Assembly (NCBI RefSeq): GCF_037013405.1
Contig: NZ_CP146064.1
Coordinates: 210,001-242,000, forward strand
Source: Candidatus Nanosynbacter sp. BB002
Lineage (GTDB): Bacteria > Patescibacteriota > Saccharimonadia > Saccharimonadales > Saccharimonadaceae
Reading direction: 5' to 3'
Length of the DNA: 32,000 nucleotides
Shown: piece after piece, positions 13,286 through 31,654 of the stretch
Position numbering within the stretch: the stretch's first letter is position 1
Layout of the letters: each line of letters starts with the position of its first letter
The notes under the pieces: model-generated
The model's database searches: none
The model's input: the letters and a program-made list of their open reading frames with translations, nothing else
What the model was told of the DNA's origin: nothing
Program-made: the position numbers and the translations under genes

Positions 13286-14263
13286 ATGGAAGAAGTGAGG
13301 GAAACGACTGATATTTTTTTGTGGGCGAATCAAACTGACGCGAAGAAGAATGATTTACAGATAGAGCTGTTTTTGTTTAATAAAAATTACACGCCGTATG
13401 TTATGCCTCTAAAGGGCGATGTCGAGCAGCAGCTCCGGCCGCTATTTTTGTTTGATTATATCAATCAAGTTAATTTGGGGGCGGGTACCGGCCTTAGCGT
13501 GCGGGATTATGAGCTGAGCGAAGCGGAAGACAACGTACTACTGCGGACAGACCTCGCCAAGGTTGGCCGAGCGGAAACCTTGATTCATTTGATTGAACAT
13601 GAGCGCGGCGACATCGTGGAGTTTTCGGAAACTGAGCATGAGTTTAAGCGAATGAAGGGAATTGTGGCGCGATTTACCGATCCAAATGATCCAGAAAAAA
13701 TCTTTTACACAGCCAAGCTGATCCAGCAGGGGCAGACACTCAAAAGTGCACTGGCGTGGGAGTTTTCTGATGGCATGTTTGGTGCGTTTAAGGCGGAGGT
13801 TGGTTTTAAAGTGCCAGATGATAACCAGGTGCTGATCATCGGGCAGGATATTTTCGCCTTTAATCCAGGCAAGTTTGAGCGGATGTTTGGCTATGAGTAC
13901 AAGAAGCAGGTGATTGCCGATAAGAAAGTGGCGGAGATCGAAAAGGAATATAAATTGAGTTTCCCAGAGGGCTTGGATCTGAACACGCTGGTCAAGGAGC
14001 GCAAAAAGACCATCAATAAACTACAGAAATTGGAGATCGGCGAGGTCAAGCAAGAGCAGGTGCTGGACTATGCTGATGAGATGCAGCTGGAGCTAATGAG
14101 TGATGATAACGGCGCGATTATCATCATGGACGGCAATGATCTGGATATGTTTGTGAACTTGATCAATGAGGACTACATTGAGAGCAAAATTACTGGCAAA
14201 CGCTACGAAATTAAGTCGAAAAAACTGCTGGGTGAGCCTGAGGGTGAACCGCCGCGAGGTTAA
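13286..14263 (+). CDS. hypothetical 325-aa protein, possibly DUF4868 (KwaB-like); partner of the downstream helicase
   Basis: Long clean ORF with no enzymatic motif. The beta-rich N-terminal half (IELFLFNKNYTPYVMPL...LRPLFLFDYI), the central VLIIGQDIFAFNPGKFERMF and the C-terminal DMFVNLINEDYIESKITGKRYEIKSKK recall DUF4868 proteins. This is recollection only and is unverified. Confidence 0.3.
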   Translation: MEEVRETTDIFLWANQTDAKKNDLQIELFLFNKNYTPYVMPLKGDVEQQLRPLFLFDYINQVNLGAGTGLSVRDYELSEAEDNVLLRTDLAKVGRAETLIHLIEHERGDIVEFSETEHEFKRMKGIVARFTDPNDPEKIFYTAKLIQQGQTLKSALAWEFSDGMFGAFKAEVGFKVPDDNQVLIIGQDIFAFNPGKFERMFGYEYKKQVIADKKVAEIEKEYKLSFPEGLDLNTLVKERKKTINKLQKLEIGEVKQEQVLDYADEMQLELMSDDNGAIIIMDGNDLDMFVNLINEDYIESKITGKRYEIKSKKLLGEPEGEPPRG

Positions 14264-14265
14264 GT

Positions 14266-15786
14266 ATGGACCAAGAGTTGGCGCTGGCGATTTTGATGAG
14301 CGGTCGGTCGGCGCTGCTGACGGGTGCGGCTGGTACGGGCAAAACGCACCTGCTGAATACTTTTATTGCACAGGCGCGTGACCAGGGTAAAAAGGTGTCG
14401 GTAACAGCGACGACGGGCTTGGCGGCGACGCATTTGGGCGGCAATACCATTCACAGTTGGAGTGGTATTGGTGTCAGTGATCACTTGGCGAACAACTTTT
14501 TTGATCGGCTGTCAAAAACGCGACGTGAGGTAATTACTAAGACTGATGTGCTGGTGATTGACGAGATTTCCATGCTGCATGATTTTCGGCTGGACATGGT
14601 CGATCGGGTGTTGCGTGGTGTCCGGGAGAATGACCAGCCATTTGGCGGTATTCAGCTAGTGATGAGTGGTGACTTTTTCCAATTACCGCCGATCAATCGT
14701 CCGGGTGAGCAGGGCGGTGGTTTTGTGGTATATTCGGAAGCGTGGCAGGAATTGCAGCCAGCAGTGCTATATTTGGAGCGGCAATATCGGCAAAATGACG
14801 AGCAGCTCCTCGAGATTTTGACGGCACTGAGGAATGACGATATCAGACGGCATCATGCCGAGACCTTGCTAGCGCGGACGGAGGTCGAATTGCCTGATGG
14901 TGATATCACCGAACTACACACCGTCAATGTTGATGTCGACGCCATTAACAGCCAGAAGCTGGCGGAACTGGCGGGTGGGGAACGAACGTACCAGCAGACG
15001 ACGACCGGTTCAAAAGTATATGTCGAGAACTTGCAGCGGTCGGTACTGGCGCCGAGCGAACTCGTGTTGAAACTGGGTGCGTTGGTGATGGCGGTGAAAA
15101 ATTCGCCGCAGAAATTGTACGCCAATGGTAGTATCGGCACGGTGGTGGATTTTGAGCCGCTGACCGATTATCCGATTGTGGAGTTTTGTAGTGGTCAGCA
15201 AGTGACCATGGTGCCGGATGTGTGGGAGCTGCGTGACGGTGAGCGCAAGCGCGCTAGTATTTCTCAGGTGCCGCTGCGGCTGGCGTGGGCTATTACCGTG
15301 CATAAAAGCCAGGGTATGACGCTGGACGCGGCAAAAATTGACCTAAGAAAAGCGTTTGTTGAAGGTATGGGTTATGTGGCCCTCAGTCGGGTGCGAGATC
15401 TTGATAATCTGTATCTATATGGAATTAACCGCAAAGCATTGGCGGTCTCGCCTGATGCACTGGCAATTGACGAGGTGCTGCAGCGGGCAAGTAGTGAGGT
15501 GGCCAAGCATTATCGTCCAATGTTAGAGGAAATGAAGCGAAAACAGTCAGTTCCGAAAAAATCCGGTAAGAAATCTCAGTCCGGCAGCTGGCAGCAAAAA
15601 ATTGCCAAAATGCGCGAAACCTATCCCAAAGCCTACATGCCGTGGGAAAAAGCCGACGACGACATTCTCAAACAGGAGTTCTTGCAGGGCGCAACCATCC
15701 AGCAACTTAGTCAAAAACTTGGTCGCCATGAAGGCTCAATTCGCATGCGACTACAGAAGCATTTTGGGGAAGATATCGTAGCGTAA
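14266..15786 (+). CDS. Pif1/RecD-family SF1B DNA helicase with C-terminal helix-turn-helix extension
   Basis: Walker A GAAGTGKT (14323-14346), Walker B VLVIDEISML, Pif1-type motif SGDFFQLPPI, motif V/VI AITVHKSQGMTLD...YVALSRVR. The C-terminal 70 aa (PWEKADDDILKQEF..ATIQQLSQKLGRHEGSIRMRLQK) look like a small HTH. The ATG is 2 nt after the upstream stop, with a GAGG SD. Confidence 0.85.
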   Translation: MDQELALAILMSGRSALLTGAAGTGKTHLLNTFIAQARDQGKKVSVTATTGLAATHLGGNTIHSWSGIGVSDHLANNFFDRLSKTRREVITKTDVLVIDEISMLHDFRLDMVDRVLRGVRENDQPFGGIQLVMSGDFFQLPPINRPGEQGGGFVVYSEAWQELQPAVLYLERQYRQNDEQLLEILTALRNDDIRRHHAETLLARTEVELPDGDITELHTVNVDVDAINSQKLAELAGGERTYQQTTTGSKVYVENLQRSVLAPSELVLKLGALVMAVKNSPQKLYANGSIGTVVDFEPLTDYPIVEFCSGQQVTMVPDVWELRDGERKRASISQVPLRLAWAITVHKSQGMTLDAAKIDLRKAFVEGMGYVALSRVRDLDNLYLYGINRKALAVSPDALAIDEVLQRASSEVAKHYRPMLEEMKRKQSVPKKSGKKSQSGSWQQKIAKMRETYPKAYMPWEKADDDILKQEFLQGATIQQLSQKLGRHEGSIRMRLQKHFGEDIVA

Positions 15787-26894: not shown

Positions 26895-27023
26895 TAAAAT
26901 GACATCAACCGCATAGCTGGACAGCGTTATAGTTCCCTAATAATTTAGATATTGGTATAATCCTTACTTAAGGGACTGTAAAACTATTGTAGCTGAAGGT
27001 GTCGGCTATTGTAATGGTTTGTT

Positions 27024-29666
27024 TTACGCAGCACTCTTCTTCCGCCTACGTCGCCGCTTTTTTGGTGCGGTGGTAGCAGTTGAGTCAGCTGTGGTGTTTG
27101 CGCTATTGCCGCGGATCTGCAAAACGACTTCATTGCTGTTTGGGGCTGGTTGCGGCTGGGCTGGACGGGCATTGGCAGTAGCAATAGGTTGCTGAGCTGG
27201 CTGTTTGGTAATTGGCTGAGCGGCGGGCCGAGGCGCCTGCTTCTGCGGCTGTGGTTGCGGCATGATAGCCGCATTGATTTCTTTTTCAACATCCTCCCTG
27301 CTCCGTGAGTACATGCGTCGTGAATGCTCGATGATGTGCAGGGTATTATCGGCCTGGCTTGGCGGAAGTTCGAGGGTGCGTGCGGAGAAGGCTGGCGTCT
27401 TCTCTCCCCCGATGACCATGTTGATGACAAAGTTACGATTGTGCATCTGCAAGAGGTCGACGGCTTCAAAATTCGGCTCAAATTGTTTGGCGAGAATTGG
27501 TGCGTCATCAGCAGACACGCGGAATGAGATCATGGTGCCGACGTTGCCAAAGACTGCATCGCGCACGGTTTCATTCATCTGTGAGATGTACTGGTTGGCG
27601 ACGGTCAGGTTAAGGCCGTATTTGCGGGCTTCGGACAGGATGGTGGCGAATGAGTCGGTGGCGAAGTTCTGGAACTCGTCAACGTAGAGGTAAAATGGGC
27701 GGCGGTCGCGGATATCTGGGATGTCAGAGCGCGACATAGCGGCCAGCTGAATCTTGGTGACCAAGAATGAACCGAGGATGGCGGCGTTGTCCTCGCCGAT
27801 GAGGCCCTTGGATAGATTCACGATGAGGATTTTGCCCTCGTCCATGATTTGGCGGATATTGAAGGTGGATTCGGGCTGGCCGATGATGTTGCGGATGATG
27901 GGGTTGGCAGTAAAGGCGCCGACTTTGTTGAGGACTGGCGCGACCGCCTCGGCGACGAACTTGTCGTTCCAGCTGGCGAATTCGACGTTCCAGAATTGCA
28001 AGACCACGGTGTCGCGGCAATAGCCCAGCGTTTCTTTGCGGAAATTTTTATCAGTTAGCATGCGGGTGATGTCGAGCATGGTCGTCTCTGGCCGGTCGAG
28101 CAGCGCCAGGATGGTGTAGCGCAAAATATACTCCAGTCGCGGCCCCCAACTCTCGCCGAACATGCGCTTCAAAACGCCGATGACCTCTGATGAAATGTTC
28201 GTTTTTTGGTTCGGGTTGGTGACTTCCAGCGGGTTGAAGCCGAGTGGATAGGCGGTGTCGGCCGGGTTGAAATAGACGACGTCGTTCAGGCGTGAGCCGG
28301 GGATAAATTTCATGTTGTTGATGGCGAAGTCGCCGTGCGGGTCGATGATGGCGTAGCCTTGGTTGTGAAAGATGTCACTGAGCGCGAATAATTCAAGCAA
28401 CCCAGACTTACCTGCTCCGGTCTGACCGATGATGTAGACGTGGCGCGAGCGGTCGTAGCGCAGCATGCCGAATTGGTGGTTGATACCGCGGAAATTGGTG
28501 ACGCCAAAGGCGGAAATCTGGTCGTCATTGGCGTCGCTACCAGTCAGGACAGGTAGCTTGGACGGCGGTTCGGCGGTTTTAGCACTGGCCCAGACGATGT
28601 TTGGCGTCTCAACATTGGTGTGTGGCAGGTGAAAGACAGAAGCCAGCTCTTCGATATTGAGGATGAAACCATCGCCAAAAAATGCACGACGACGATATTT
28701 TTCTAAAAATTCTTTGCCGTAGGCGGCTTTGATGGGCTTAAAGCCGTTTAGGTTTGTAGAATTAAACTGTTTGAAAGTCCCCACCAAGGCTTGCATGCGC
28801 AGCTTGGCGTTGGTTTGGTTCTCTCCCAGATATGCTAAGCGGATTTTTACTTCGTAGCCCAGTTTGGTGGCTTTCTTTTCAGCTTCAGCGATGCGAGTTT
28901 TATTGCGCTCAGATATTTCTGGACCCTTGCCGCCAGCCAATCCTTCCTCTGGTGGTCGCCACAAAGCAGCAAACAAACCACCGAGCCACCGCATGCTACC
29001 ACCAACACTTGGTAGGATGCTGGCAGAGCCTTCACGCAGGCGTGATATCCAGTGGTCAGCTTCGATTTGCCATGAGTCCTCAACTGGTTTAGCCAGCACT
29101 TGAATCCACAATTCTTCGCCTGTTGACTCTAGCTTTGCTAATGTTCCCGTGATGCCAGCCAGCGGGTCAACTTCAAAGGTTTGGAATGTTTTGATTGGTA
29201 AAAATTCAGACGCCGTCAAAGTCATCTCAGTAGTGTATGTTACTGAATGATCACGTTCGTGCTCGGTATAATCTTCACTAGCCTGGTGAATTTGGACGGT
29301 TGGGTATTGGGCGTAGATTTGCCCCTCGACGAAGCTCTGCAGAGACCGCGGTGTCCAGACATAGAACCGGATTTGCCCATTGACCGAAGCCACCTCAAAA
29401 CTCAAATGTTCCTGCGCTCCCCTGCTCAGTTTGAGTTCACGTTTATCACGCAGGATGCCGTGCAAGCTGGCAAACAACTGCTCAGCAGCAAGCTCTTTCT
29501 TATCATTGGTTTTTGGGATCTCCAAAATGAGCAAAACGTTGTCGCTCGAGATAAATTCATTGAGCTGTTGATAATTGCGCCACGTCAAAAAAGATAACAA
29601 AATAACCAGCGGCAACCAAACATACCACTGCATCAATAATGTTATAGTCCAGGAAAATATTTCCAT
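27024..29666 (-). CDS. VirD4/TraD-like type IV coupling-protein-family ATPase with a large unique N-terminal domain and a low-complexity basic tail
   Basis: N-terminal TM helix (WYVWLPLVILLSFLTW), Walker A GQTGAGKS (28404-28427), GYAIIDPHGDF, Walker B FYLYVDEFQNF (DE at 27675-80), ARKYGLNLTVANQYISQM (TraG/TraD C-terminal-type motif). TGGGATAAT lies 8 nt before the ATG. Confidence 0.75.
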   Translation of the reverse strand: MEIFSWTITLLMQWYVWLPLVILLSFLTWRNYQQLNEFISSDNVLLILEIPKTNDKKELAAEQLFASLHGILRDKRELKLSRGAQEHLSFEVASVNGQIRFYVWTPRSLQSFVEGQIYAQYPTVQIHQASEDYTEHERDHSVTYTTEMTLTASEFLPIKTFQTFEVDPLAGITGTLAKLESTGEELWIQVLAKPVEDSWQIEADHWISRLREGSASILPSVGGSMRWLGGLFAALWRPPEEGLAGGKGPEISERNKTRIAEAEKKATKLGYEVKIRLAYLGENQTNAKLRMQALVGTFKQFNSTNLNGFKPIKAAYGKEFLEKYRRRAFFGDGFILNIEELASVFHLPHTNVETPNIVWASAKTAEPPSKLPVLTGSDANDDQISAFGVTNFRGINHQFGMLRYDRSRHVYIIGQTGAGKSGLLELFALSDIFHNQGYAIIDPHGDFAINNMKFIPGSRLNDVVYFNPADTAYPLGFNPLEVTNPNQKTNISSEVIGVLKRMFGESWGPRLEYILRYTILALLDRPETTMLDITRMLTDKNFRKETLGYCRDTVVLQFWNVEFASWNDKFVAEAVAPVLNKVGAFTANPIIRNIIGQPESTFNIRQIMDEGKILIVNLSKGLIGEDNAAILGSFLVTKIQLAAMSRSDIPDIRDRRPFYLYVDEFQNFATDSFATILSEARKYGLNLTVANQYISQMNETVRDAVFGNVGTMISFRVSADDAPILAKQFEPNFEAVDLLQMHNRNFVINMVIGGEKTPAFSARTLELPPSQADNTLHIIEHSRRMYSRSREDVEKEINAAIMPQPQPQKQAPRPAAQPITKQPAQQPIATANARPAQPQPAPNSNEVVLQIRGNSANTTADSTATTAPKKRRRRRKKSAA

Positions 29667-29675
29667 GCTATTAAA

Positions 29676-29684
29676 TTATCCCAT
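29676..29684 (-). promoter_or_regulatory. extended -10-like element (TGgGATAAT on the minus strand), 8 nt upstream of the ATPase ATG at 29666
   Basis: Reverse complement of attatccca, read directly. Confidence 0.45.
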
Positions 29685-29703
29685 ATTTGATGTAACAATA
29701 CAA

Positions 29704-30759
29704 TCAGGCTTGTTGCTGTTCAAACACGTAAGTGGCTTTGGCGACACGCTTGAACTGTGATTTTGACTGCAGGTTTAACAAAATAGTCGTTTCTTTGACT
29801 TGGCGTTTGTCCAAAACTCGTTTGATGATCTCGTCGCGGTGCAGTGGCTGATCAGCTTCTTTGAGGATGTCGGTGATGATATCAGCAACAGTGCCGCGGC
29901 TGTAGCCCCATGAGTCCAGCGCATAGATACCGCGACCGATCAGCACGAAGCGGCTATCTTTGATGAGTTCGTTGTGAATCGCTTGTGTGGTGACGTTTTT
30001 GCGCTTAAAATCGCTGTCTTTGATGGCCTTGGCGATCTCTGAAAAGTGCATTGGTTTGCCGTTGTCGTCCAGGATGACAAAAATTTTGTCGCGAATATTT
30101 TTCGGATTGACGGTTGGCCACTTGATGAGTCCCCAGTTCCCTTTCAGCTCAGCCAGCTTCTTGCTGATGGACGCCAGTGCTGCGATATTCTGTGGATGCT
30201 CATAGTCCATGGACTCGTGAATTGCTTCAGCGGTGATTGGCTGGCCGTGTTTTTTGATGAATTTAACAATTTCTTCAACTTGTTTTTTCACTGACTTTTC
30301 GTCACCGACGGATGAGATGACCGCGGACTGATAGAAATCGTCATTTTCATTGATAACAGTCAAGCCTGGCGCTAATTCTGCCAAGAAAGCGACAGCTGAG
30401 CGCTCCAGGAGTGTCGCATCACGACCCAAAATGTGCGATGTCAAGTTTTGCATACGAGCACCACGGCCCATTTCTGACAGATGCGAAACGATGAGCTTTT
30501 CGGCAGAATTAACAGATGGCAATTTGTCTTCTGCTACTGACGCACGCAGTTTGGTGAGGATGGCTTTTTCAAGTTGACGAACGCGCTCACGAGTAATGCC
30601 CAGCATCTCACCGATCTGTTCCAATGTCTCTTTCCTGTCTTCCAGCCCAAAGCGACGTGAAATGATTTCACGCTCACGCTCTTGAGAAATGCTACCAAGA
30701 ATATCCGCAACCGCTGTATTCAAACTCTCTGCCGCGTCAGCTATTTCTGGTTTGCTCAT
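29704..30759 (-). CDS. sigma-70 region 4-like HTH protein with two C-terminal HARE-HTH-like domains (not a complete sigma factor)
   Basis: REREIISRRFGLEDRKETLEQIGEMLGITRERVRQLEKAILTKLR is a region 4 / LuxR-like HTH; no region 2 is present. The C-terminal repeats IRDKIFVILDDNGKPMHFSEIAKAI...RFVLIGRGIYAL and VADIITDILKEADQPLHRDEIIKRV...FKRVAKATYVF fit the HARE-HTH pattern. The track TTG at 30846 contains the TATAAT at 30828-30823, so the ATG at 30759 is preferred. Confidence 0.65.
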   Translation of the reverse strand: MSKPEIADAAESLNTAVADILGSISQEREREIISRRFGLEDRKETLEQIGEMLGITRERVRQLEKAILTKLRASVAEDKLPSVNSAEKLIVSHLSEMGRGARMQNLTSHILGRDATLLERSAVAFLAELAPGLTVINENDDFYQSAVISSVGDEKSVKKQVEEIVKFIKKHGQPITAEAIHESMDYEHPQNIAALASISKKLAELKGNWGLIKWPTVNPKNIRDKIFVILDDNGKPMHFSEIAKAIKDSDFKRKNVTTQAIHNELIKDSRFVLIGRGIYALDSWGYSRGTVADIITDILKEADQPLHRDEIIKRVLDKRQVKETTILLNLQSKSQFKRVAKATYVFEQQQA

Positions 30760-31003
30760 GGTATATTCCAAGTATCCTCTCTGCCACACCCTGCATATAT
30801 TTTTATCATCTCTATGTGCTTGATTATACAACAATATGTAACTCAAGTCAAATATTTGTGCTGCTTTTACAAATTATAGCACGTTCTTTACGATTTTTGC
30901 AATGGGTTGTTTGATGTATATACAATAAGCGGTTTATATGGTATGGCACTAGTGATTACGGCTATGCTTTGTAAAATATGAGCTATATTATATAGTTATC
31001 ATT

Positions 31004-31654
31004 ATGAATGAATTAGGAAAAACCTCGATGGAAACAACAGCGTCTCTAGAAGACTTGAAAGCGGTGCAAAATTTCATCATTGACTGCTTGGCAGATGGGC
31101 AATCAATGACGGTGCCGCAGCTATCTCAGCAGTGGTGCGAAGCTCACGGCTCCAAGTCTCTCATTAAAGCTGGTCTGTTTAATGAAACAATTCGACAAGC
31201 ACTAAGTGAAATTGAAGCTGAGGAGGACGGGTCTTTTGAATGTTTGAAAAAAACGGTTGTTCAAGATACTAATACGACCGTCACGTACTACCACCTTAGT
31301 GGTGCGTCTGAAGGATATCAACCAGCCGTAATGGAGCCTGTTAATTCGGAGAGGTTTGTGCCTCCGCTTCAGGCTGCCATTAATGAGGTTGTTGGTAATC
31401 ATGATGCAGTAAATCCAGACTGGGATATGCGCAAACTATGTGCTAAGAGAGCGGTTGGTACATTTACTACTAAGCTGTGTGAAAAATGTCCAGTAAAGAC
31501 TGACTGCCTGAAGACTGCGCTTGCGGAAGAGGCTCGATTTAGTACTAAGGATGTTAAAACGTTAGGTGTCAAGGGTGGTTACGCTCCTCGTGATCGGTTA
31601 GGACTCTTAAAGGAAATCAAGGAAAAAATACACGAGACTGACCAAAAGTCATAG
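31004..31654 (+). CDS. WhiB-like (Wbl) Fe-S cluster protein with a 140-aa N-terminal extension
   Basis: C146-x12-C159-x2-C162-x5-C168 within LCEKCPVKTDCLKTAL, followed by GVKGGYAPRDR (compare GIWGG...R). TATAGT at 30991-96 is 7 nt before the ATG. Confidence 0.55.
   Translation: MNELGKTSMETTASLEDLKAVQNFIIDCLADGQSMTVPQLSQQWCEAHGSKSLIKAGLFNETIRQALSEIEAEEDGSFECLKKTVVQDTNTTVTYYHLSGASEGYQPAVMEPVNSERFVPPLQAAINEVVGNHDAVNPDWDMRKLCAKRAVGTFTTKLCEKCPVKTDCLKTALAEEARFSTKDVKTLGVKGGYAPRDRLGLLKEIKEKIHETDQKS

Follow-up and report, generated by a model that had tools for sequence, protein, structure and literature searches.

What does a pair of chromosomal genes, one for a DNA-binding protein and one for an ATPase resembling the coupling proteins of conjugation, do at a locus where no conjugation apparatus is encoded? 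We met this question in an oral Candidatus Nanosynbacter (strain BB002, Saccharibacteria), in a chromosomal stretch of 32,000 nucleotides (nt) that we call the window (contig NZ_CP146064.1, positions 210,001 to 242,000; coordinates below count from its first letter). The two open reading frames (ORFs) lie on the minus strand, the ATPase gene downstream of the regulator gene across a gap of 37 nt (29667-29703); an earlier reading of the DNA from its letters alone (hereafter the sequence-only reading) had reported both ORFs and the gap, and we recovered the same coordinates:

29704..30759, minus strand: regulator ORF, 351 amino acids (aa), a DNA-binding protein with sigma region 4 and three winged-helix (HARE-HTH) segments

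27024..29666, minus strand: ATPase ORF, 880 aa, membrane-anchored and coupling-protein-like, the regulator-adjacent paralogue 'B'

We find that the ATPase belongs, as the regulator-adjacent paralogue, to a chromosomal family that runs through the Patescibacteria and resembles the coupling proteins of type IV secretion systems (T4SS), and that its pairing with the regulator is far beyond chance in two deeply divergent sets of loci.

The pairing was counted starting from loci that encode DUF8128, the domain that makes up the N-terminal part of the ATPase. In a genome set of 80 species-level loci, almost all of them from Saccharimonadia, the regulator gene stands directly upstream and on the same strand in 58 of the 71 evaluable loci (those with enough upstream DNA), down to about 40% protein identity, and murG and ftsQ converge downstream of the pair in many of them. 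A second set comprised 80 metagenome loci of a split type from other Patescibacteria; here 51 of the 61 evaluable loci have the regulator upstream, and 59 of 67 have the ATPase gene downstream. The module of these other classes has three genes, running from regulator to DUF8128 to ATPase with tiny gaps or overlapping start and stop codons, and the adjacency of the regulator persists although the proteins are only about 30-45% identical across classes. The supposition, made from a single locus, that the two genes would be found together in other genomes is thus borne out. Outside the Saccharimonadia secD-secF is often found just upstream of the triad (in many of the loci L081-L085 and L089-L167); in some loci it instead converges downstream of the DUF8128-ATPase genes. 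About 40 of 167 loci gave a match to SecD or SecF, an association that may reflect conserved gene order or a functional link.

The family comprises two paralogues. Berkelbacteria-type loci carry two full-length DUF8128-ATPase genes in tandem (L086, 2837-8925; L087, 1658-9087), and in L087 the regulator is located between them. The window ATPase is 46% identical to the regulator-adjacent copy of L087 and 34% identical to the other paralogue. A small ORF of 168-175 aa also lies between the paralogues of L086 and L087; it is 42% identical across the two loci, matches nothing in Pfam, and is missing from the window and from the other loci.

The ATPase itself is made up of an anchor, an additional domain, a motor and a tail:

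29547..29666, minus strand: N-terminal hydrophobic helix, residues 1-40, the putative membrane anchor (helix 2-40 in the AlphaFold2 (AF2) model; topology inferred)

28551..29546, minus strand: DUF8128 (PF26449) domain, residues 41-372, alpha/beta, with a predicted fold like that of the VirB4 N-terminal domain, ending at EPPxxLP

27258..28550, minus strand: TrwB-like P-loop motor, residues 373-803, with an all-alpha insertion (helices at about 485-595)

28404..28427, minus strand: Walker A motif GQTGAGKS, residues 414-421

27675..27692, minus strand: Walker B motif YLYVDE, residues 659-664

27024..27257, minus strand: P/Q/A-rich tail and stop codon, residues 804-880, ending KKRRRRRKKSAA, isoelectric point (pI) 12, predicted to be disordered (predicted local distance difference test, pLDDT, below 50)

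The translation contains GQTGAGKS, IIDPHGDF, YLYVDEFQNF and KYGLNLTVANQYISQ, which accounts for every motif that the sequence-only reading had quoted. Residues 406-718 score above the Pfam gathering thresholds for TrwB_AAD_bind (37.9 bits, cutoff 20.5), TraG-D_C (27.6 bits), T4SS-DNA_transf (25.8 bits) and DUF87 (26.0 bits), and across 111 homologues G414, G417, G419 and K420, the run V662, D663, E664, F665 and Q666, and many motor residues are invariant. The closest solved structure by sequence is TrwB (1e9r; phmmer against the PDB, E 1.2e-5), and the C-terminal half of a full-length AF2 model (pLDDT 84.5) superposes on TrwB in Foldseek with a TMt of 0.63-0.69 and a root-mean-square deviation of 4-6 Å. 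The all-alpha insertion is predicted by the same model as helices 485-595 between core strands, and its counterpart in TrwB lies inside the Foldseek match. The TraD models of NCBIfam stay below their cutoffs (TIGR03743, 50.6 versus 366 bits; TIGR03754, 35 versus 647.55), as do the VirB4 models (TIGR00929, 26.5 versus 643.1 bits; AAA_10, 14.7 versus 27.5). The ATPase is coupling-protein-like, and its motor half is nearer to TrwB than to VirB4. The claim of a membrane-anchored ATPase of the coupling type agrees with the N-terminal helix and with TrwB as the best match both by sequence and by predicted fold.

The established type IV coupling proteins (T4CPs: VirD4, TrwB, TraD) have in common with the window ATPase a membrane-anchored P-loop motor with an all-alpha insertion. 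They usually have two transmembrane helices, whereas here one is predicted, with the 330-aa DUF8128 between anchor and motor; and they are encoded with relaxase or T4SS genes, of which none lies near the window ATPase. Hydrophobic N-termini are present throughout the ATPase family, with one clear helix in the window protein, and a second hydrophobic stretch, in a loop at residues 210-240, is found in many homologues and is weak in the window protein. The corresponding residues 217-246 (28929-29018) form a low-confidence, weakly hydrophobic loop within DUF8128 (pLDDT 50-67), and the homologues with a predicted transmembrane segment at about 210-240 include P0128, P0141, P0145, P0153, P0160 and P0258. 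This loop may form a hairpin within the membrane, as in VirB4 N-terminal domains, or else a second transmembrane helix, which would alter the topology.

The first 400 residues, which the sequence-only reading could match to nothing, belong in fact to a named and widespread Pfam family, PF26449 (DUF8128): PF26449.1 is present in the precomputed annotation of the window protein (P0001) and of all its close homologues. In an exhaustive search residues 1-400 matched 2,445 clusters (50% identity) at E<=1e-3, of which 1,304 reach E<=1e-10, and a hidden Markov model (HMM) built from 98 DUF8128 members recovers all 167 loci (L001-L167). The domain occurs in two forms. In Saccharimonadia, Berkelbacteria, Howlettbacteria and others it is fused: a single polypeptide of 800-1,150 aa carries a transmembrane helix, DUF8128 and the ATPase. 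In lineages such as Yanofsky-, Azam- and Portnoybacteria it stands alone behind its transmembrane helix in proteins of about 390-480 aa, which stop exactly at the conserved EPPxxLP (window residues 366-372). No paper on DUF8128 or PF26449 was found in full-text searching.

An AF2 model of DUF8128, computed on the 98-sequence alignment (pLDDT 86.8, predicted TM-score 0.82), has an alpha/beta fold that opens with a beta-alpha-beta-beta-alpha-beta unit. Searched against the PDB with Foldseek, its top 13 matches are all to TrwK, the VirB4 of R388 (E 8.6e-6 to 4.7e-4), with probabilities of 0.99-1.00 but modest TM-scores of 0.30-0.38, and the other matches are weak and to ferredoxin-like folds. The full-length model is collinear with TrwK over about 900 columns (E 4e-15). 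In VirB4 (TrwK, 7o42/8rtd) an N-terminal alpha/beta domain precedes the motor, which is the order of the window ATPase, and TrwK chains come first in Foldseek both for DUF8128 and for the full-length model, with global TM-scores of 0.24-0.38. A DUF8128 sequence profile (A2) had zero matches among PDB sequences. On these models the ATPase joins a T4CP-type motor to a domain that probably, though not certainly, folds like the N-terminal domain of VirB4. Domains of that type serve VirB4 proteins in dimerisation, in membrane embedding and in contacts with VirB3 and VirB8 (PMC12857230).

The family extends beyond the Patescibacteria, and there it is found in the company of T4SS genes. The phage family phrog_5156 matches ATPase residues 74-808 (E 8.9e-86), and tblastn searches found gp156 of Bacillus phage G (residues 42-773, E 6e-56), several other Bacillus phages, and 343 plasmid records from Streptomyces, Bacillus, Staphylococcus, haloarchaea and Sulfolobus. 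A DUF8128 HMM made only from Patescibacteria sequences recognises gp156 (E 5e-26) and a 913-aa protein of a B. subtilis plasmid (NRS6107_2; E 5e-18), with no match to the VirB4-like proteins of the phage G and Bacillus plasmid loci. In phage G (L169, JN638751.1 87772-93336) the order is gp153 (TrbL/VirB6-like), gp154, gp155 (VirB4-like) and gp156 (DUF8128 and ATPase). On the Bacillus plasmid the DUF8128 homologue is followed by genes for a replication-relaxation protein, TcpC, TcpE and an AAA_10 VirB4-like ATPase, and it occupies the T4CP position of the conjugation cluster. We considered pLS20 as the source type of this match and rejected it, as the match belongs to another plasmid type; the T4CP of pLS20 (gene 48) has two N-terminal transmembrane helices and sits in a differently organised operon. 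A plasmid of the haloarchaeon Natrinema thermotolerans (L172, 3511-11081) carries, in this order, a 1,107-aa T4CP-like gene, a 399-aa DUF8128-like gene and a 1,021-aa ATPase gene.

These plasmid and phage proteins have the two-domain layout of the window protein, to which they are 21-30% identical, and both fused and split forms exist among them. Unlike the window gene, they lie inside conjugation or T4SS-like clusters, with VirB4-, VirB6/TcpC/TcpE- or relaxase-like neighbours, and they are without a sigma-region-4/HARE neighbour. No gene of that kind was found in the phage and Bacillus plasmid loci that were scanned (L168-L171), so the motor would need no regulator in principle. Some details of these loci may be recorded here: gp156 is annotated as 'MsbA-like', and gp153-gp156 amount to a T4SS-like mini-cluster in a jumbo phage; the 399-aa gene of L172 overlaps the 1,021-aa 'TraM recognition' ATPase gene, an arrangement that mirrors both the split and the tandem-paralogue forms of Patescibacteria; and a scan of IMG/VR with the DUF8128 alignment gave one fragmentary locus only.

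The partner of the ATPase is a protein of composite build, whose best-defined parts are these:

30514..30747, minus strand: sigma-70 region 4 (4.1-4.2), residues 5-82, with the -35-reading helix TRERVRQ (phmmer against SigB 7pp4, E 3e-12)

29905..30114, minus strand: HARE-HTH winged helix, residues 216-285, pI 9.45 (Pfam residues 226-284)

Pfam identifies Sigma70_r4 at residues 27-73 (56.2 bits, cutoff 24.1) and HARE-HTH (PF05066) in two stretches (40.3 bits, cutoff 25.9). Neither Sigma70_r2 nor Sigma70_r3 was found at E<=0.1, and sigma-factor models align via their C-terminal region only. Lacking regions 2 and 3, the protein would have no core-binding or -10 function, and we reject the idea of a sigma factor; here Pfam and NCBIfam agree with the sequence-only reading, which had seen sigma region 4 and HARE-HTH without region 2. 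Residues 5-82 align with region 4 of SigB and SigA, including the TRERVRQ helix, which is conserved to 80% or more in a collection of 129 unique regulators; the most conserved segment in that collection is the HARE winged helix of residues 216-285. Each of the three winged-helix segments has a basic pI (9.0-9.5). The regulator's HARE domain is similar to the HARE N-terminal domain of RNA polymerase (RNAP) delta (RpoE; TIGR04567, E 1e-8), with 35.2 bits falling under the curated cutoff of 42, and delta ends in an acidic tail where the C-terminal domains of the regulator are basic instead. The combination of sigma region 4 with HARE-HTH was not found in the literature searched.

The DNA upstream of each gene bears on whether the pair is one transcriptional unit, as the sequence-only reading had proposed:

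30823..30851, minus strand: regulator promoter TTGACT-N17-TATAAT, 63 nt upstream of the ATG at 30759

29675..29703, minus strand: predicted internal ATPase promoter, TTGTAT (29703-29698), a 17-nt spacer, then TGG and GATAAT (29680-29675)

In most orthologous loci the regulator promoter reads TTGACA-N17-TATAAT without a mismatch, 55-65 nt before the ATG, and it is followed by a conserved leader, GGTGaGGCAGAGAGGA. A longer, TTG-initiated reading of the regulator ORF would reach 30846 (29704..30846); since that TTG sits inside the TTGACT-N17-TATAAT promoter, we take the ATG at 30759 as the real start. In the leader (30760-30822, minus strand) there is also a block GGTG(a/t)GGCAGAGAGGA, 15-25 nt before the ATG and conserved in most Saccharimonadia loci; it is longer than a Shine-Dalgarno sequence requires and may be a regulatory element or operator.

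The -10 element of the internal promoter ends 8 nt before the ATPase ATG (29666), and 24 of 31 distinct Saccharimonadia spacers contain TTGC[ACT][AT]-N17-TGn-GA[TC]AAT with a -10 that ends 7-17 nt before the ATG. From this conservation the spacer promoter is predicted to drive the ATPase gene and to yield a near-leaderless mRNA. No terminator was found between the two genes, which makes read-through from the regulator promoter likely as well. The description of the pair as an operon was therefore partly right, for the genes adjoin and may be read through, but the 37-nt spacer holds a conserved promoter that belongs to the ATPase gene.

Published genetics allow us to ask what the pair is worth to a cell. 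In Southlakia epibionticum ML1 the corresponding genes are SEML1_0294 (regulator) and SEML1_0293 (ATPase) (PMC10633639, Tables S1, S2), an orthology that we judged on architecture and synteny. Gene order and strand are as in the window; TrwB_AAD_bind spans residues 402-719 there and 406-718 here, and the Sigma70_r4 (27-72) and HARE-HTH (225-283) matches of SEML1_0294 fit the coordinates of our regulator. The spacer is 155 nt there against 37 nt here, and the neighbours are topA and cas9 there against the dcw cluster here. Both genes are flagged as core and Patescibacteria-enriched (PMC10633639). In transposon sequencing (Tn-seq) SEML1_0294, annotated 'RpoS', is essential, with 1-2 insertions, whereas SEML1_0293 is non-essential, with 87-120 insertions and normalised reads that go from 5817 to 1372 over the time course (PMC10633639); the fall may reflect a mild cost. 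A second T4CP-like gene of the same genome, SEML1_0142, is essential, and so is the T4SS cluster SEML1_0006-0019, which is without a coupling protein or a relaxase (PMC10633639). The genome also encodes a single true sigma factor and a canonical FtsK, itself essential, and competence in S. epibionticum needs ComEC and type IV pili. These data weaken the notion of a dedicated two-gene module, advanced in the sequence-only reading, as SEML1_0294 is essential and SEML1_0293 is not (PMC10633639). TM7x transcriptome papers do not mention either gene.

The wider background is known from surveys. Patescibacteria have a T4SS like that of the mating-pair formation class MPF-FATA, usually encoded away from their T4CP homologues (PMC12102498; PMC10633639). 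Quinonero-Coronel et al. counted 5,713 VirD4-like homologues in 2,918 Patescibacteria genomes, found relaxases to be nearly absent (109 in 103 genomes), and wrote that exaptation of the T4CP homologues 'cannot be ruled out' (PMC12102498). The word 'orphan', which the sequence-only reading applied to the ATPase, is accordingly apt locally; however, a T4SS is encoded elsewhere in Patescibacteria, and orphan T4CPs had already been reported (PMC12102498). DUF8128 and the pairing with the regulator are discussed in neither survey, although the second lists both genes in its tables (PMC12102498; PMC10633639).

We suggest, at about an even chance of being right, that the window ATPase works as an accessory motor of the coupling type, with DUF8128 as its docking point on a T4SS encoded elsewhere, and that its partner is a DNA-binding factor built on sigma region 4 whose targets include the downstream promoter and extend beyond it. 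We take the motor to be accessory or conditional because the orthologue is dispensable in co-culture and the second T4CP-like ATPase is essential. The ATPase would assemble as a membrane-anchored ring and dock, through DUF8128, on a monoderm-type T4SS; ATP would then drive the recruitment of a substrate, DNA or protein, and its feeding into the T4SS channel. The regulator, expressed from its consensus promoter, would act as a DNA-binding transcription factor whose targets include the TTGCNN-N17-TGnGAYAAT element of the spacer without being limited to it, and it could additionally serve the motor as a DNA adaptor in the manner of TrwA or TraM. The docking, the substrate, and the contacts of the regulator with the promoter and with the ATPase are parts of this scheme that we infer.

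Several observations weigh against this proposal. T4SS genes are absent not only from the window but also from the 8-kb flanks of 80 related genome loci, and 148 of the 5,713 Patescibacteria T4CP homologues lie near virB4 (PMC12102498). Structure prediction of the N-terminal domain, which the sequence-only reading had recommended, did give a fold like that of the VirB4 N-terminal domain, but hhalign of DUF8128 against VirB4 N-terminal domains was negative, with a probability below 1% (the targets were the N-terminal domain of a Bacillus VirB4-like protein and an 11-sequence profile of VirB4 N-terminal domains from MPF-T plasmids); the likeness to VirB4 comes from a predicted structure with modest TM-scores (0.35-0.38). 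As the T4SS is essential and SEML1_0293 is not, the ATPase cannot be its sole or obligatory energiser, and as the regulator is essential and the ATPase dispensable, the regulator must do more than serve the ATPase. SEML1_0142, which would be the essential counterpart, is presumably the DUF8128 paralogue 'A', a placement made from its length and annotation. Finally, one oral TM7 clade (L039-L046) keeps the ATPase without an adjacent regulator, in the order topA, a 676-nt gap, ATPase and cas9. A pseudogenised regulator in this clade was considered and rejected, since the gap of L045 (7322-7998) has no regulator remnant and no Rfam match; that gap does hold a unit of about 190 nt twice in tandem.

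The alternative that survives best, though we consider it unlikely, makes the regulator a DNA adaptor that hands DNA to the motor as TrwA or TraM would, for relaxase-independent export or import; its essentiality would then come from serving the essential paralogue too. TrwA of R388 is a DNA-binding accessory protein and repressor. In trwA-trwB-trwC of that plasmid a small DNA-binding gene lies directly upstream of the coupling-protein gene and on the same strand, an order that recurs here, but TrwA has 121 aa and is unrelated to sigma region 4 or HARE-HTH, a relaxase gene follows trwB whereas none follows here, and the essentiality of the upstream protein in the S. epibionticum orthologue sets the pair apart from TrwA. 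The tight conservation of pair and triad, with overlapping genes in the split form, speaks for an adaptor, as do the L087 regulator between both paralogues, the basic winged helices, the basic ATPase tail, and the near absence of relaxases from Patescibacteria (PMC12102498). On the other side stand the plasmid and phage loci, which have no regulator among those examined, the separate promoter of the ATPase gene in Saccharimonadia, and the different fitness phenotypes of the two genes. A bolder version, in which the sigma-region-4/HARE protein loads both DUF8128 ATPases for relaxase-free DNA delivery or acquisition via the essential T4SS, we regard as a long shot; if true, it would be a mode of substrate recruitment unknown in conjugation systems and universal in the Patescibacteria radiation.

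Rather less can be said for the view that the adjacency has little functional meaning and that the regulator is a general, essential RNAP-associated factor, with a delta-like HARE-HTH and a flap-binding sigma region 4, which we hold to be quite unlikely. Its essentiality in S. epibionticum and its perfect consensus promoter would suit such a role, its HARE domain is closest to RNAP delta and its region 4 near that of primary sigma factors, and the separate ATPase promoter and the one clade without adjacency would follow naturally. Yet the adjacency has survived divergence to about 30-45% identity and the fission or fusion of the ATPase, with overlapping start and stop codons in the split loci, and neutral gene order is seldom so long-lived; the TIGR04567 score, moreover, lies under its cutoff, and the basic C-terminal domains have no acidic tail of the delta kind.

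That the ATPase is a membrane translocase working without the T4SS, for instance in DNA uptake or export, in nucleoid handling during budding, or in protein export together with SecDF, appears distinctly improbable to us. The ATPase is encoded away from the T4SS, exaptation was left open by the authors of PMC12102498, and the gene adjoins the dcw cluster in Saccharimonadia or secD-secF in many other Patescibacteria. These neighbours, however, are on the opposite strand or form separate units, and they vary between classes; a canonical essential FtsK exists, competence in S. epibionticum proceeds via ComEC and type IV pili, and outside the Patescibacteria the family sits in T4SS and conjugation clusters. 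Because of that FtsK the segregation role raised in the sequence-only reading is unlikely, and an FtsK substitute or segregation motor was rejected as the main idea. Anti-phage defence was rejected as well: PADLOC returned generic HerA/mad8 P-loop matches for the ATPase and a sigma-region-4 match to MzaA for the regulator. We also reject as highly improbable that the locus is what remains of an integrated conjugative element or plasmid. Homologues do occur on 343 plasmid records and in Bacillus phages, and GC rises slightly at 27-29 kb; but the family is core and Patescibacteria-enriched, its place in the chromosome is shared by 58 loci, neither an integrase or relaxase gene nor a tRNA gene or flanking repeat is present in the window, and the GC rise is that of the P/Q/A tail.

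The surroundings of the pair are those of a core chromosomal locus. The dcw cluster in the window (mraZ-mraW-PBP-mraY-ftsW-murG-ftsQ) converges on the ATPase gene, and the remaining DNA is housekeeping in character, with a two-component system, recO, tRNA synthetases and RNase H. Pfam scans of the roughly 30 other ORFs found no gene for a VirB channel, relaxase, pilin or integrase, in keeping with the sequence-only reading, which had seen no VirB channel, relaxase or pilus genes; no tRNA gene or flanking repeat was found within the window, nor any Rfam match, and together with the dcw cluster this places the pair outside any integrated conjugative element. The slight rise in GC at 27-29 kb coincides with the stretch that encodes the P/Q/A-rich tail of the ATPase. 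Two ORFs, of 174 aa (26984-27508, minus strand) and 141 aa (27262-27687, plus strand), overlap the 3' end of the ATPase gene in other frames; lying over the GC-rich tail-coding DNA, they are most likely not genes.

Two further observations concern genes of the window that are separate from the pair. On the plus strand at 13286-15786, between the RNase H gene and a GH1 gene and upstream of the dcw cluster, a KwaB-like gene (Pfam KwaB, 2.2e-8; PADLOC KwaB, 9e-12) is directly followed by a PIF1/RecD-like helicase gene (PIF1, 2e-38; PADLOC PDC-S68 and typeIV_RecD), and the two may form a defence pair. Divergent from the regulator gene, at 31004-31654 on the plus strand, lies the gene for a 216-aa protein in which a long N-terminal extension precedes a WhiB domain at the C-terminus (E 1e-5); by tblastn it is found only in the closest relatives (L001-L003, 53-92% identity), with no match in L004-L080. 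WhiB proteins are typical of Actinobacteria, the hosts of Saccharibacteria.

What was already known is the ATPase family and its 'orphan' status in Patescibacteria. New, as far as we have searched, are what the N-terminal domain is and how it probably folds, its presence at the T4CP position in plasmids of monoderm bacteria and archaea and in phage G, the two-paralogue structure, the conserved internal promoter, and the class-spanning, Patescibacteria-specific tie to an essential protein of the sigma-region-4/HARE-HTH type. Patescibacteria need a T4SS for epibiotic growth, and it has been suggested that their T4CP homologues may be "exapted for other functions" (PMC12102498). We add the hypothesis that these homologues form two ancient paralogues sharing DUF8128 with its VirB4-like predicted fold, of which one is tied to the sigma-region-4/HARE-HTH protein across classes and, in Saccharimonadia, has a conserved promoter to itself. 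DUF8128 marks a clade of coupling-type ATPases common to plasmids of monoderm bacteria and archaea and to the jumbo phage G, and this clade bears on the divergence of VirB4 and VirD4. Should the regulator prove to be an ordinary regulator, the pair would be a tidy and modest addition to T4SS diversity; if it is a substrate adaptor, it would point to the cargo of an essential T4SS.

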